Below are positions 2,490 to 6,832 of a stretch of 8,554 bases of DNA, one piece after another. Position numbers and translations under genes: made by a program. Position 1 is the stretch's first letter. Each line of letters starts with the position of its first letter. The notes under the pieces were generated by a model that ran no database searches, was not told the DNA's origin, and saw only the letters and a list, made by a program, of their open reading frames with translations. Source of the DNA: a virus (Duplodnaviria > Heunggongvirae > Uroviricota > Caudoviricetes); the IMG/VR virus record IMGVR_UViG_2534681988_000034. The stretch is one strand, 5' to 3'.

Positions 2490-2650
2490 ACCGCCTCCCG
2501 TTTATTATTTATCTTCTCAGCCAGCCGCTGTGCTTTCAGTGGATTTCTGATAACAGAAAGGCCGGGAAATACCCAGCCTCGCTTTGTAACGGAGTAGACG
2601 AAAGTGATCGCGCCTACCCGGATATTATCGTGAGGATGCGTCATCGCCAT
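2462..2650 (-). CDS. Small lambda orf60a-like protein
   Basis: 62-aa ORF starting 10 nt inside the 3' end of exo (ATG rc of 2648-2650, GGGGAG upstream) and overlapping the orf63-like start by 28 nt. Same arrangement and size as lambda orf60a. Confidence 0.4.
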
Positions 2651-3321
2651 TGCTCCCCAAATACAAAACCAATTTCAGCCAGTGCCTCGTCCATTTTTTC
2701 GATGAACTCCGGCACCATCTCGTCAAAACTCGCCATGTACTTTTCATTCCGCTCAATCACGACATAATGCAGGCCTTCACGCTTCATGCGCGGGTCATAG
2801 TTGGCAAAGTACCAGGCATCTTTTCGCGTCACCCACATGCTGTACTGCACCTGGGCCATGTAAGCCGATTTTATTGCCTCGAAACCACCGAGCCGGAATT
2901 TCATGAAATCCCGGGAGGTAAACGGGCATTTCAGTTCAAGGCCGTTGCCGTCACTGCATAAACCATCGGGAGAGCAGGCGGTGCGCATACTTTCGTCGCG
3001 ATAGATGATCGGGGATTCAGTAATATTCACGCCGGAAGTGAATTCAAACAGGGTTCTGGCGTCGTTCTCGTACTGTTTTCCCCAGGCCAGCGCCTTAGCA
3101 TTAACTTCCGGAGCCACACCGGTGCAAACCTCAGCCAGCAGGGTGTGGAAGTAGGACATTTTCATGTCAGGCCACTTCTTTCCTGAGCGGGGCTTTGCTA
3201 TCACGTTGTGAACTTCTGAAGCGGTGATGACGCCGAGCCGTAATTTGTGCCATGCATCATCCCCCTGTTCGACAGCTCTCACGTCGATCCCGGTACGCTG
3301 CAGGATAATGTCCGGTATCAT
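2641..3321 (-). CDS. exo: Lambda-type 5'-3' exonuclease (Red alpha)
   Basis: 226-aa ORF, near-identical from memory to lambda Exo (…[63 protein letters not shown]…). Start overlaps the bet stop (ATGA-type coupling) as in lambda. Confidence 0.95.
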
Positions 3322-4103
3322 GCTGCCACCTTCTGCTCAGTGGCTTTCTGTTTCAGGAATCCAAGAGCTTTCACTGCTTCGGCCTGTGTCAGTTCTGACG
3401 ATGCGCGAATGTCGCGGCGAAATATCTGGGAACAGAGCGGCAATAAGTCGTCATCCCATGTTTTATCCAGGGCGATCAGCAGAGTGTTAATCTCCTGCAT
3501 GGTTTCATCGTTAACCGGAGTGATGTCGCGTTCTGGCTGACGTTCTGCAGTGTATGCAGTATTTTCGACAATGCGCTCGGCTTCATCCTTGTCATAGATA
3601 CCAGCAAATCCGAAGGCCAGACGGGCACACTGAATCATGGCTTTATGCCGTAACATCCGTTTGGGATGCGACTGCCACGGCCCCGTGATTTCTCTGCCTT
3701 CGCGGGTTTTGAATGGTTCGCGGCGGCATTCATCCATCCATTCGGTAACGCAGATCGGATGATTACGGTCCTTGCGGTAAATCCGGCATGTACAGGATTC
3801 ATTGTCCTGCTCAAAGTCCATGCCATCAAACTGCTGGTTTTCATTGATGATGCGGGACCAGCCATCAACGCCCACCACCGGAACAATGCCGTTCTGCTTA
3901 TCAGGGAAGGCGTAAATTTCTTTCGTCCACGGATTAAGGCCGTACTGGTTGGCGACGATCAACAATGCGATGAACTGCGCATCGCTGGCATCACCTTTAA
4001 ATGCCGTCTGGCGAAGAGTGGTGATCAGTTCCTGTGGGTCGACAGAATCCATGCCGACACGTTCAGCCAGCTTCCCTGCCAGCGTTGCGAGTGCTGTACT
4101 CAT
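3318..4103 (-). CDS. bet: Single-strand annealing recombinase Bet (Red beta)
   Basis: 261-aa ORF, near-identical from memory to lambda Bet ([66 protein letters not shown]…). Immediately upstream of exo. Confidence 0.95.
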
Positions 4104-4108
4104 CCGTT

Positions 4109-4405
4109 TTATACCTCTGAATCAATATCAACCTGGTGGTGAGCAATGGTTTCAACCATGTACCGGATGTGTTCTGCCATGCGCTCCTGAAACTCAACAT
4201 CGTCATCAAACGCACGGGTAATGGCTTTTTTGCTGGCCCCGTGGCGTTGCAAATGATCGATGCATAGCGATTCAAACAGGTGCTGGGGCAGGCCTTTTTC
4301 CATGTCGTCTGCCAGTTCTGCCTCTTTCTCTTCACGGGCGATCTGCTGGTAGTGACGCGCCCAGCTCTGAGCCTCAAGACGATCCTGAATGTAATAAGCG
4401 TTCAT
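4109..4405 (-). CDS. gam: Gam, host RecBCD inhibitor (short form)
   Basis: 98-aa [63 protein letters not shown]… matches the 98-residue C-terminal (GamS) part of lambda Gam. AGGAG RBS 7 nt upstream of ATG (rc of 4403-4405). Confidence 0.9.
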
Positions 4406-4480: not shown

Positions 4481-4687
4481 TTAGTGATTCAGAGCGTTGC
4501 CGCGTCCGTCGAGAAAAACTTCCACGAGCAAGTCACGGGTATAAGTGCGCTCAATGCCGCGATGCAGATAAAGTCGTCCGCGTAAATTAGCTGATGCAGT
4601 CCAGGTACCATCTTTGCGTTTGACCAGCATTCCTGGCATGACCGCACCGCGATTAACGGTCTGCGTTCCGTAATGTTGATGAACCAT
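4481..4687 (-). CDS. Small pL-operon protein in the kil position (68 aa; 96 aa if started at 4771)
   Basis: ORF directly upstream of gam on the minus strand. Internal ATG (rc of 4685-4687) has a strong AGGAG RBS 5 nt upstream; the longer form from 4771 has only a poorly spaced GAGG. Basic, Arg/Lys-rich small protein; function inferred from position only. Confidence 0.5.
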   Translation of the reverse strand: MVHQHYGTQTVNRGAVMPGMLVKRKDGTWTASANLRGRLYLHRGIERTYTRDLLVEVFLDGRGNALNH

Positions 4688-4964
4688 AAAAACTCCTGCC
4701 CGTAAGCTGGGCTGCTGAACATATAAAGACTTCTGCGCGTATTCAGGCGGTGGATGGCCGCCGGTTGTCATAACTAAGCCGCCTCGTTGAAGCGACTAAG
4801 GTATGAAATGTTGAGTTGATTTCAGCTGGTCACACCGACGTTCACGCGTCCGTTTCATCCCTCGCACTCCCCGAAGCCTGCTGAAATTCAAGCTGCGGAT
4901 CTAAGCGGTCATCGCAACGGTGAATCAGGTGATTGCCGTATCGTTGTGTTGTTGCGATGAACTC

Positions 4965-4993
4965 ATTTAAAACTATAGTTGTTTTATCGTCAA
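4965..4993 (-). promoter_or_regulatory. Putative early leftward promoter pL (-35 TTGACG, 17-bp spacer, -10 TTAAAT)
   Basis: Minus-strand reading: TTGACG (rc of 4988-4993), 17 nt, TTAAAT (rc of 4965-4970); predicted start near 4957. The block is near-identical to the pR block upstream of cro (TTGACT-AAAAACAACCATAGTT-TTAATC). Confidence 0.5.
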
Positions 4994-5040
4994 CAACAAA
5001 AGTTGTTTTGTTGGTTGTTTTAGATATAACTGGTTGTATT
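4971..5040. promoter_or_regulatory. Putative OL operator cluster (repeated GTTGTT/AACAAC half-sites)
   Basis: Perfect 16-bp palindrome AACAACAAAAGTTGTT (4992-5007), inverted repeat GTTGTT-8-AACAAC (4978-4997), palindrome AACTATAGTT (4971-4980), and further GGTTGTTTT / GGTTGTATT copies (5013-5040). The same half-site TGGTTGTT/AACAACCA occurs in the cI-cro intergenic region. Confidence 0.45.
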
Positions 5041-5130
5041 TAAGATGGATTTATTTTGTGACTTGCATCGCATAGCGATAACTGAAGCGAGGTCGTGGTG
5101 GTTTTTTTGAACGGTGTATGATGAGGGGAG

Positions 5131-5163
5131 GGCAAAAGAAAACCCGGCACGGTGGCCGGGTTT
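5131..5163 (-). terminator. Putative Rho-independent terminator closing the cI operon
   Basis: 9-bp stem AAACCCGGC(5140-5148)/GCCGGGTTT(5155-5163) with 6-nt loop. On the minus strand the hairpin is followed by UUCUUUUG. Lies about 75 nt downstream of the 147-aa gene stop and upstream of OL/pL. Confidence 0.5.
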
Positions 5164-5237
5164 AGATGATTGGTTAAGAGCGAGGGTAATGGGGAATGAA
5201 AAATCGCTTTACCTAATGCAAGGGTGCGAGCATTTTC

Positions 5238-5681
5238 TTAAGCACTAAAGAAAAAGTACATTGATAGCTTATAAAGTCCTGTTCCTGCAGCGATGATTGC
5301 TGGAACACCAAGCAATACCGCAAGCTTTGCGTCTGAAATCTTTCTATCGACAGCATCACTTGATGGCTTGTTTGTTAAGGATTCTTTTATAGAGTCCAGA
5401 CGTGCAAGAATAGTTATCATATTTTTGTCGATAGCTTTAACGTCTGTTTTAAGTTCATCAACGTCTCGTTTGATATGAGCAACATCGGACTCCAGTTTTG
5501 CAACTTTTTCAGGCATGTTATCACTCCCAGACCCACTGCTACCACTTGATTGTAGCATGTCCCATCTTTTTCCAGATATACCTGCTAGCTGGGAAGACGC
5601 ACTGGAGTGCAAACAAAATGATTCTGCCGCCTTTGCAATTTTATCATTTAGGTTTGGAGCTTCGTAATAATCGTGTTTCAT
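5238..5681 (-). CDS. Hypothetical coiled-coil protein with C-terminal transmembrane anchor (147 aa), in the rex-equivalent position
   Basis: Minus-strand ORF 12 nt downstream of the 87-aa gene. Ser/Gly-rich linker (SSGSSGSGS), heptad-like coiled-coil segment (KVAKLESDVAHIKRDVDELKTDVKAIDKNMITILARLDSIKESL), and hydrophobic C-terminus (LAVLLGVPAIIAAGTGLYKL). No SD before the first ATG; an internal ATG (rc of 5514-5516) has GGGAG at 7 nt and would give a 92-aa form. Region is AT-rich by eye. Confidence 0.6.
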   Translation of the reverse strand: MKHDYYEAPNLNDKIAKAAESFCLHSSASSQLAGISGKRWDMLQSSGSSGSGSDNMPEKVAKLESDVAHIKRDVDELKTDVKAIDKNMITILARLDSIKESLTNKPSSDAVDRKISDAKLAVLLGVPAIIAAGTGLYKLSMYFFFSA

Positions 5682-5693
5682 AATTAATTACGA

Positions 5694-5957
5694 TTAGTTT
5701 GTTTTAGCTTTGTCATGCTGGTCGCGAATGAAGTCAGCCAATTTAAGCATCAATTCTTCGGGCATTCTAATGGTTGCAATGTTGTACTTTATGTTCTCAA
5801 CATCGTCACTTTCATCAACAGGCCATTCAGTTACATTATGAAAAAAAGAAATTGAACCTAGGCGCTGAGAGCCGTCACCAAACGAAGAGTAGCCAAACGC
5901 GTCGGCGTATGCATCGACACAGTTATTTGATTTTTTAACAAGTGTTTTATTACTCAT
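5694..5957 (-). CDS. Hypothetical small acidic protein (87 aa), first gene of the module downstream of cI
   Basis: Minus-strand ORF 81 nt downstream of the cI stop. ATG (rc of 5955-5957) preceded by AAAGG at 5 nt. Acidic C-terminal half (WPVDESDDVENIKYNIATIRMPEELMLKLADFIRDQHDKAK). AT-rich codon usage unlike the flanking Red and cI genes. No family recognised. Confidence 0.6.
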   Translation of the reverse strand: MSNKTLVKKSNNCVDAYADAFGYSSFGDGSQRLGSISFFHNVTEWPVDESDDVENIKYNIATIRMPEELMLKLADFIRDQHDKAKTN

Positions 5958-6038
5958 TTTTGCCTTTCCCGTAATGTTATTTTTTATAAGGTATTTTCTT
6001 CAGCGTATTACCCAAAAGCCTCATCAACACGCGGCTGA

Positions 6039-6728
6039 TTATCCGTGTTTTCTGTACGTCTGCGGCATGCTCCCAATAACCTTACCGAATATGAATACCC
6101 GGTTCATCTCGTCTTTCTCGATAGGGTCCCACGGTGAGTAGCTCTTGTTATCAGAGATAACCAGCAGTTTATCCTTCATCATTTGCAGGCGCTTTACATG
6201 GGCGGTGTCGTCGTACAGAAATGCATAGATACCATCACCGTCGAAAGATTTAACCGTGATATCAACGAACAGCAGATCACCTGGTTCGATCGTTCCTGAC
6301 ATGCTGTCACCACGCACGTTAATGATGCGGATATTTTCTGCCTTCCTACCATCGAACATGTGACGAGCATCGTCAAACGAGTACTCAACCGAGCGTAGAA
6401 CTTCTACAAACTCACGGTTGATGACTCCCGGCCCAGCACTGACTTCTATATCAAGAACGTCAATCTTGAAGTATTTGGAATGGCTGACAGTTGATTGTAT
6501 TGGTTGCACTGTACTGTCTGACATATTTCCAACGCCAGAAGATAACCATTCTGCGCGCACACCCAAAGCGTTCGCGATCTCCACGATTTTAGTTGTTTGA
6601 TTAGCTTTCCCTGTTTCGATTTTCTGAATAGCAGCCTGGCTAACCCCGACCAAATCCCCAAGCGCCTTTTGTGTAAGGCCTCGCGCTAATCTGGCTTCTT
6701 TAAGTCTTTCTGAGAGTGTTGTTTTCAT
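6039..6728 (-). CDS. cI: CI-type prophage repressor (N-terminal XRE-family HTH + C-terminal S24/LexA-like autopeptidase)
   Basis: Start chosen at MKTTLSERLKEARLARGLTQKALGDLVGVSQAAIQKIETGK (ATG rc of 6726-6728), a typical HTH_3 N-terminus; the 22 codons upstream cover the operator region. C-terminal domain has an Ala-Gly cleavage site (VSAGPG), catalytic Ser in GDSM and Lys in VKRL, as in LexA / lambda cI. Divergent from cro. Confidence 0.85.
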   Translation of the reverse strand: MKTTLSERLKEARLARGLTQKALGDLVGVSQAAIQKIETGKANQTTKIVEIANALGVRAEWLSSGVGNMSDSTVQPIQSTVSHSKYFKIDVLDIEVSAGPGVINREFVEVLRSVEYSFDDARHMFDGRKAENIRIINVRGDSMSGTIEPGDLLFVDITVKSFDGDGIYAFLYDDTAHVKRLQMMKDKLLVISDNKSYSPWDPIEKDEMNRVFIFGKVIGSMPQTYRKHG

Positions 6729-6832
6729 AGTCCAAATGTACAACCAAGGTTTTATTCCATCAAACGAAAATGGTTGTTGACTAAAAACAACCATAGTTTT
6801 AATCTTGATTCAAATTAACCACGGAGGTTGTT
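6729..6832. promoter_or_regulatory. OR operator region with divergent promoters pR (plus, for cro) and PRM (minus, for cI)
   Basis: pR: TTGACT (6777-6782), 17-bp spacer, TAATCT (6800-6805), then GGAGG RBS and cro ATG at 6833. Inverted repeat TGGTTGTT(6771-6778)/AACAACCA(6786-6793) overlaps the pR -35 and spacer. PRM (minus): TTTGAT (rc of 6759-6764), 18 nt, TACATT (rc of 6735-6740), ending 6 nt before the cI ATG, implying a leaderless cI mRNA as in lambda. Confidence 0.55.

Follow-up and report, generated by a model that had tools for sequence, protein, structure and literature searches.

The stretch of DNA analyzed here (8,554 nt; IMG/VR record IMGVR_UViG_2534681988_000034; hereafter, the window) represents the early and immunity region of a lambdoid prophage. 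Directly downstream of its cI-type repressor gene, on the minus strand, are two small genes encoding proteins of 87 and 147 amino acids (aa), neither of which belongs to a characterized family. These genes form an obligate pair and constitute a dispensable, horizontally swapped accessory cassette placed for co-transcription with cI. Accessory genes ("morons") coding for a soluble and a membrane protein in a repressor operon are a well-known type of element; the two proteins and the architecture of the putative effector, a single-pass coiled-coil protein, are not well known. We hold with slightly more belief than doubt that the pair is a prophage-expressed two-component immunity cassette acting at the membrane, with Rex-like logic and possibly toxin-antitoxin (TA)-like regulation, in which the 87-aa protein would serve as a cytoplasmic regulator or sensor of a tail-anchored effector, the 147-aa protein.

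The limits of the cassette were determined by comparison with related phages. PhiR47_2 and PhiR5_1 have flanks 97%–98% identical to the window and different genes in the same slot, annotated as GevT/GevA and HipA/HipD. Homology to the phages with other cargo ends at positions 5162/5163, at the top of a terminator hairpin, and restarts at 6039/6040, at the cI stop codon; therefore, the swappable cargo comprises positions 5164–6038 of the minus strand (875 bp). Its GC content is 39.5% versus 46%–52% in the flanks, which fits horizontal acquisition. The same slot contains a two-gene cargo for proteins of 341 and 149 aa in phage PhiR68_2 (locus L059, 1061–2516) and genes for a 340-aa protein and a 168-aa "transmembrane protein" in phage Perceval (L060, 1067–2617), and it is empty in PhiR34_1 (L061), which plates on MG1655. 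Since phages with the same flanks carry other cargo or none, the cassette is dispensable and horizontally exchanged. PhiR68_2, Perceval, and PhiR34_1, together with the cassette phages, make up a natural series of slot variants on isogenic flanks. The cassette also follows either of two cI alleles (100% and 82% identity) that differ in the N-terminal DNA-binding domain; it therefore moves between immunity types.

The repressor gene (6039–6728, minus strand) is the first in the operon. It is separated from the 87-aa gene by 81 nt (5958–6038), which include the ribosome-binding site of the latter and form the right end of the cargo; a scan of the minus strand between cI and the 87-aa gene for intrinsic terminators found none. 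Such a terminator (5163–5140, minus strand; a 9-bp stem with six GC pairs followed by a T-run) begins 75 nt past the stop codon of the 147-aa gene, ahead of the OL operators. It marks the end of the cI-87-147 operon and is common to phages with other cargo. A terminator-like hairpin with a T-run is also present on the plus strand (6029–6048), overlapping the cI stop codon and pointing away from the cassette; it could stop convergent or antisense transcription from the left into cI. The region 5200–6000 is 100% identical to the prophage adjoining tRNA-Arg in Escherichia coli O26:H11 strain 11368, in which both cassette genes (WP_000066829 and WP_012565042) are annotated as "hypothetical protein." This region is carried by 205 of 5,426 complete E. 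coli genomes (~4%), on the chromosome in all cases, at ≥99% identity in 151 of them and at 80%–90% in the other 54; the carriers include O26:H11 and O103 strains.

The 87-aa gene had been proposed in a preliminary description made from the sequence alone as an open reading frame (ORF) at positions 5694–5957 with a plausible ribosome-binding site. Its position proved to be exact, and its strand, which was not given there, is minus. The gene starts with ATG, runs for 87 codons, and ends with TAA; it is also called in RefSeq (WP_000066829, old locus tag ECO26_0580). The sequence GGGAAAGG, resembling a ribosome-binding site, ends 6 nt before the start codon, in line with the earlier suggestion. 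The acidic character ascribed to the C-terminal half of the protein was likewise borne out by the isoelectric points (pI), 4.5 for residues 44–87 (11 Asp/Glu versus 6 Lys/Arg) and 7.9 for residues 1–43, with an overall pI of 4.96. The ratio of nonsynonymous to synonymous substitution rates (dN/dS), calculated by the Nei-Gojobori method against nine homologs, was 0.05–0.18; the differences from the copy in P22-like phages comprised 19 synonymous and 5 non-synonymous substitutions. With such dN/dS values, the ORF is far beyond a chance ORF and is a real gene under strong purifying selection.

The product of this gene is a small acidic soluble protein, predicted to be cytoplasmic, without a signal peptide or transmembrane (TM) segments. 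Its AlphaFold2 model consists of an antiparallel beta-sheet of three strands and a C-terminal helix. Searches of Pfam, NCBIfam, and PADLOC gave no match, none of the PADLOC-DB v2.0.0 defense models being hit, and a sequence-profile search of PDB found no relative. The absence of a recognizable motif, noted earlier, thus holds for these resources, but the protein is not an orphan: it is a member of phrog_4231 (E = 7e-54; residues 1–87 aligned with positions 1–87 of the 88 positions of the profile), and its homologs occur in about 40 phage and prophage loci. The remote-homology search that the preliminary description had suggested revealed no relative of known function, phrog_4231 being a family without annotated function. 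Neither homology to a characterized family nor evidence of non-translation was found for the ORF. The family is very small, with 10 clusters found in a word-indexed search of 5.8 billion proteins and 8 clusters at 50% identity in a profile search of 1.84 billion representatives. All members originate from Enterobacterales or Arsenophonus (hosts are Escherichia, Salmonella, Serratia, Leclercia, Raoultella, and Arsenophonus) and are 87–105 aa long. The motifs SFGYSSFG, GSISFFK.V.EW, and ATIRMPE..LA.FI.EQH are kept in homologs down to 30% identity.

The partner gene (5238–5681, minus strand; WP_012565042) follows after 12 nt (5682–5693), exactly as had been described. This spacer lacks a Shine-Dalgarno sequence for the 147-aa gene, and at other loci the two genes have ATGA overlaps; translational coupling is therefore likely. 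The 147-aa protein belongs to phrog_3556, a family of unknown function (E = 1.5e-58), which is also matched by all 18 aligned relatives. It comprises an N-terminal helix with the sequence MKHDYYEAPNL, a disordered linker rich in serine and glycine (approximately residues 29–55), a coiled-coil helix (56–104), a break with the motif KPS, and a single C-terminal TM helix (~119–140) within a hydrophobic segment at ~115–140, which appears as a single terminal helix in the AlphaFold2 model. The protein is thus predicted to be tail-anchored, with its bulk in the cytoplasm. In Pfam, it matched nothing above the threshold and only coiled-coil families below it, while the search of PADLOC-DB v2.0.0 returned only coiled-coil noise (PbeC, LmuB, and JetC; E ≥ 0.004); NCBIfam and PDB profiles likewise yielded no more than such noise. 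One relative, P0024 (91 aa), looked like a short form of the partner; this was a gene-calling artefact, as the full-length ORF is intact at that locus.

Forty related loci were retrieved, and analysis of their ORFs distinguished 12 contexts. In all 12, the 87-aa homolog is followed directly by a partner gene, with an overlap of up to 53 nt or a gap of up to 12 nt; the overlaps at other loci are 4 to 53 nt, as opposed to the gap in the window. The partners are 128–224 aa long and share the same design, an N-terminal helix, a low-complexity linker rich in serine and glycine, a long coiled coil, and one C-terminal TM segment. The pairing is therefore obligate. The contexts fall into four kinds. 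The pair is found (i) in lambdoid cI operons, with the two cI alleles mentioned above; (ii) in P22-like phages, including Salmonella phage UPF_BP1 and several IMG/VR loci, where it overlaps mnt at its 3′ end and is located before the ejection-protein gene 16, in an interval that in P22 contains orf59a and sieA; (iii) downstream of other S24 or helix-turn-helix (HTH) repressors (loci L044, L009, and L047); and (iv) among siphovirus tail genes, as an insertion on the opposite strand adjoining the tape-measure gene (L043 and L045). Usually, a gene for a repressor (cI, Mnt, or an HTH protein) precedes the 87-aa homolog. The earlier proposal of a functional pair, based on tight linkage, thus received strong support from comparative genomics. 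Its framing of the 87-aa protein as a generic regulator of a membrane protein fared less well: since the pair is a swappable cargo of the prophage repressor operon, occupying the slot of rexAB and sieA, a role in exclusion or defense is favored. An antitoxin-like and a sensor-like role had both been suggested for the 87-aa protein, and its sequence may fit either.

A third small ORF for a membrane protein is located after the partner gene in P22-like phages and at some other loci (L023, 5745–5981; L040, 5736–6110; L042, 5961–6257; L048, 5571–5801; L041, 4461–4844) and is absent from the lambdoid cassette. The predicted products (76–127 aa) have an N-terminal TM segment and a coiled coil, or two TM segments, or a signal peptide. 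This ORF could represent a third component of the system or a moron of its own.

Comparison of cassette versions showed that the system is modular. The lambdoid and P22-like versions share 95% identity in the 87-aa protein but only 34%–38% in the partner. The DNA that these versions have in common (84% identity, window positions 5509–5983) spans the 87-aa gene and reaches no more than ~57 codons into the partner gene, ending at the serine/glycine-rich linker. At least five coiled-coil/TM types are paired with the 87-aa family. Conversely, the C-terminal module of the window type (RVAKLESDV..IRRDVDELK, KKPS, and AKLAVLLGVPAII) occurs with other N-termini in Pantoea, Erwinia, Serratia, Rahnella, Klebsiella, and Enterobacter, and each type of N-terminus has its own small upstream gene, coding for a member of a 93-aa family, a 119-aa protein, or a 153-aa protein. 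This pattern of shared and exchanged parts suggests that the N-terminal segment of the partner is the interface for the upstream protein. The 93-aa family accompanies a partner of 173–175 aa with the same C-terminal coiled-coil/TM module (L056, 3202–4022; L053, 3204–4028), and at L056 it occupies the cI-to-N slot of another lambdoid phage. Homology between the 93-aa and 87-aa families, considered in view of their similar length and collinear alignment, was not demonstrated, the hhalign probability being 4%.

One 134-aa protein (P0005, locus L005) resembled a natural fusion of the 87-aa protein with a coiled-coil/TM module. It turned out to be the product of a 318-nt in-frame deletion in a P22-like cassette, that is, a degenerate derivative. 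The deletion lies between two near-identical 18-nt repeats, both encoding DVENIK, and is attributed to recombination between the two copies. The persistence of P0005 is a weak argument against constitutive lethality of the coiled-coil/TM part. A short motif of this kind occurs both in the 87-aa protein (as DDVENIKYN) and where the partner coiled coil begins (as EADVENIKTN in P22-like phages and ESDVAHIKRD in the window). Its sites are at positions 169 and 487 of the stretch 4986–5723 of locus L023 and at 5778–5812 and ~5470–5500 of the window. The similarity may be due to coincidence, gene conversion, or mimicry.

If the pair is an immunity cassette, it could function as follows. As an accessory pair in the repressor operon of a temperate phage, it would be transcribed in the lysogen together with cI from pRM, or together with mnt in P22-like phages, up to the shared terminator, and translational coupling would ensure that both proteins are made together. 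The 147-aa partner would reside in the inner membrane as a tail-anchored protein, with the coiled coil and the single TM segment acting as the effector module. The 87-aa protein, probably as a dimer, would bind the cytoplasmic part of the partner, most likely its conserved N-terminal YYEAPNL segment, and keep the effector in an inactive state. When a superinfecting phage is sensed, the coiled-coil/TM module could oligomerize and perturb the membrane, as in Rex-like abortive infection; alternatively, the effector could block the incoming genome at the cytoplasmic face of the membrane. Exclusion or defense at the membrane is inferred from the position of the pair, since lambda carries rexAB and P22 carries sieA in this slot. 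The interval between cI and N is known as a hotspot of mosaicism, where lambda has rexAB and BTP1 has bstA; its cargo shares the repressor promoter, one of the most strongly transcribed promoters of the prophage (Owen et al., PMC8585504).

Several observations weigh against this interpretation. The argument from the hotspot position is one of guilt by association, as such slots also house TA or addiction modules and other lysogenic-conversion genes. Neither cassette protein resembles a known defense protein in PADLOC, and the accessions and locus tags of both proteins are mentioned in none of the papers available to the analysis. The AlphaFold2 model of the partner is of low confidence (predicted local distance difference test score of 56). 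As modeled, the bulk of the partner is cytoplasmic, so that a SieA-like block on the periplasmic side would be unlikely. Finally, the divergence of the 87-aa protein correlates with that of the partner N-terminus (Spearman coefficient 0.42) no better than with that of the C-terminus (0.44), giving no discrimination between them as the interacting part.

Among the other explanations, a TA or addiction module without a primary role in defense fares best, although we consider it unlikely. The 147-aa membrane protein would then be a toxin and the 87-aa protein a proteic antitoxin, and the prophage or its immunity region would be stabilized by post-segregational killing. The gene arrangement speaks for such a module, with the small gene first, tight coupling, and no Shine-Dalgarno sequence before the second gene, as do the location of paaA2-parE2 in the same operon position (PMC8630535) and the GenBank labels GevT/GevA and HipA/HipD in the identical slot. 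This explanation also overlaps with the immunity reading, since many TA systems are abortive-infection defenses. However, neither protein was assigned to a known toxin or antitoxin family in Pfam, NCBIfam, or PADLOC, and the 87-aa protein is predicted to form a compact folded domain rather than a labile, partly disordered antitoxin. The P0005 deletion, which cost the 87-aa homolog its C-terminal third and the partner its N-terminus and left the coiled coil and the TM segment in place, persists in an E. coli genome; constitutive toxicity of the coiled-coil/TM part would make this surprising. In siphoviruses, moreover, the pair is located among tail genes, where stabilization of the immunity region has no obvious role.

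It is quite unlikely that the cassette provides SieA-like, non-abortive exclusion at the stage of DNA entry, with the membrane protein blocking injection by related phages and the 87-aa protein in an accessory or assembly role. The pair does fill, in P22-like phages, the orf59a/sieA interval known from P22, adjoining the ejection-protein genes, and SNIPE shows that DNA being injected can be the target of a membrane-anchored protein with domains in the cytoplasm (PMC13190303). Yet the partner has no similarity to SieA, contains one TM segment rather than three, and is predicted to have almost no periplasmic exposure, and SieA works alone while here two genes are always present. Close relatives of the cassette also occur both in lambdoid siphoviruses and in P22-like podoviruses, whose routes of cell entry differ.

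A conversion or physiology factor unrelated to defense is very unlikely. In this case, the partner could be an XhlA-like accessory protein involved in lysis or acting at the membrane, regulated by the 87-aa protein, or a tail-anchored stress protein of the ElaB/YqjD type aiding the host. The XhlA-type proteins have the same coiled coil and C-terminal TM segment; phrog_937, an XhlA-type "hemolysin" family, is weakly matched by 8 of 18 members of the partner family (best E = 4.7e-6), and Pfam XhlA (PF10779), to which the 147-aa protein itself gave no match, by 2 of 18 (best E = 0.004). All of these Pfam matches are below the gathering threshold. Among the matches listed, the cassette is enriched in genomes of the enterohemorrhagic E. 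coli type (O26 and O103); on the other hand, it resides in operons expressed in lysogeny, outside the late lysis cassette, and is dispensable, the slot being empty in the viable phage PhiR34_1. These three explanations overlap mechanistically with the immunity reading. The chance that the 87-aa ORF is a random ORF or a decaying remnant is negligible, since apart from its small size and lack of annotation nothing speaks for this, and it is refuted by the selection analysis in all nine comparisons, along with the conserved length, the motifs kept across six genera, the full-length PHROG match, and the RefSeq call.

The observed modularity allows a broader, more tentative proposal, which we regard as possible but somewhat less probable than its opposite. 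The cassette may be the first example of a previously unrecognized modular family of two-gene prophage immunity systems, in which a shared tail-anchored coiled-coil effector is combined with interchangeable cytosolic "heads" (of 87, 93, 119, and 153 aa), each docking onto a matching N-terminal peptide of the effector. Such systems would have colonized the lambdoid rexAB slot, the P22-like sieA slot, and moron sites among siphovirus tail genes across Enterobacterales.

Few phage genes are expressed in every lysogen; those that a prophage co-transcribes with its repressor belong to this group, and they have repeatedly proved to be immunity systems (RexAB, SieA/SieB, BstA, and TA modules). If the cassette is a defense system, it presents a new effector architecture, a single-pass tail-anchored coiled coil with a very small (87 aa) partner, and a clear natural case of module shuffling, with a conserved effector and swappable partners. 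If the modular immunity family is real, it adds an effector of a new type, acting in abortive infection or exclusion, as well as a novel fold for a small sensor. Should the pair serve only addiction or conversion, it would be a moron of the ordinary kind. The cassette is small and easily cloned, and the phages with identical flanks carrying no cargo or other cargo are ready isogenic controls.

The remaining part of the window is organized as follows. The minus strand encodes integrase (1–1164), Exo (2641–3321), Bet (3318–4103), Gam (4109–4405), and Kil (4481–4771, or with a shorter start). The OL operators (~4964–5009, minus strand), which form the left limit of the immunity region, overlap a pL-like promoter TTGACG-N17-TTAAAT (4992–4964, minus strand) and belong to the same palindrome family as the OR operators. 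The latter (AAAACAAC..GTTGTTTT type, ~6762–6802) are located between cI and cro, at the site of pRM and pR. The repressor contains HTH_3 and Peptidase_S24 domains and is 229 aa long from the RefSeq start at 6728 (MKTTLSERL...); this start is more plausible than that of the mechanically defined 251-aa ORF, which begins at 6794, within the OR palindromes. On the plus strand, there are genes for a YdaS-type Cro (6833–7063) and a YdaT-type CII (7133–7672), followed by the replication gene O from position 7669 onward. An Rfam scan of the whole window found no RNA family.

An ORF of the size of an N antiterminator was looked for between pL/OL and kil, and none was found. The sole ORF in this interval (4796–4891, minus strand) encodes a TTG-initiated peptide of 31 aa, MNFSRLRGVRGMKRTRERRCDQLKSTQHFIP, in which the KRTRERR stretch is reminiscent of the arginine-rich motif by which lambdoid N proteins bind RNA. 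In prophages of a 79% variant (L029, 6067–6477), this peptide is in frame with Kil, forming an ORF of 136 aa. The GC skew over 4801–5400, a region comprising OL/pL, the terminator, and the 3′ end of the 147-aa gene, is strongly positive (+0.26 to +0.29), unlike in other parts of the window.

With regard to known systems, the fold predicted for the 87-aa protein may be comparable to small dimerization modules of the beta-sheet-plus-helix type, such as COMM-domain and PC4/Pur-alpha-like modules. The 147-aa partner resembles XhlA-type proteins (PF10779; phrog_937/1193) in its layout, a coiled coil and then one TM segment at the C-terminus, and in the weak sub-threshold profile matches. Unlike it, XhlA-type proteins are encoded in the late lysis cassettes of Firmicutes phages, and only some members of the partner family match them, below the curated cut-offs. 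SieA of P22 is an inner-membrane injection blocker present in only 22 of 66 P22-like phages (PMC10883804). In sequence, the cassette is unrelated to it: BLASTP of P22 SieA against the 147-aa protein gave E = 1.6, orf59a produced no alignment with the 87-aa protein, and no similarity to SieA types A–C was found. SieA has three TM segments and acts alone, while here one C-terminal TM segment is combined with a constant soluble second protein. The similarity consists in the slot downstream of mnt, adjoining the ejection-protein genes (UPF_BP1 and several IMG/VR loci), and in the production by a prophage of a predicted inner-membrane protein.

A close parallel in operon structure is paaR2-paaA2-parE2 of prophage CP-933P, an operon of a repressor, a small antitoxin, and a toxin in an immunity region of the YdaS/YdaT type (Jurenas et al., PMC8630535). 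The TA system is addictive, and its antitoxin PaaA2 has no DNA-binding domain because the operon begins with the repressor gene (PMC8630535). ParE2, in contrast to the predicted membrane effector here, is a soluble gyrase-type toxin, and the sequences are not related. Common features are YdaS as the Cro analog and YdaT as the CII analog, as well as the order of a repressor, a small acidic protein without a DNA-binding domain, and an effector.

The layout of the pair has counterparts among Rex-like prophage defenses, gp30-gp31 of Sbash and Butters and gp43-44 of Gordonia phage CarolAnn (PMC7542560). These are systems of actinobacteriophages with four-TM membrane partners and far larger soluble partners, without homology to the cassette, but they too consist of a cytoplasmic and a membrane protein; their proteins interact, are expressed from the prophage, and are active against heterotypic phages. 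Lambda RexA/RexB also differs in the proteins themselves: RexA is 279 aa long versus 87 aa, RexB has four TM segments in place of the single-TM tail-anchored coiled-coil partner, and neither the 87-aa nor the 147-aa protein matched the Pfam Rex families. The arrangement, on the contrary, is the same, a two-gene cargo located right after cI on the same strand and closed by a terminator before OL/pL, with the soluble protein encoded first and the membrane protein second, and, as for rexAB, expression from pRM in the lysogen is expected for the pair in the window.

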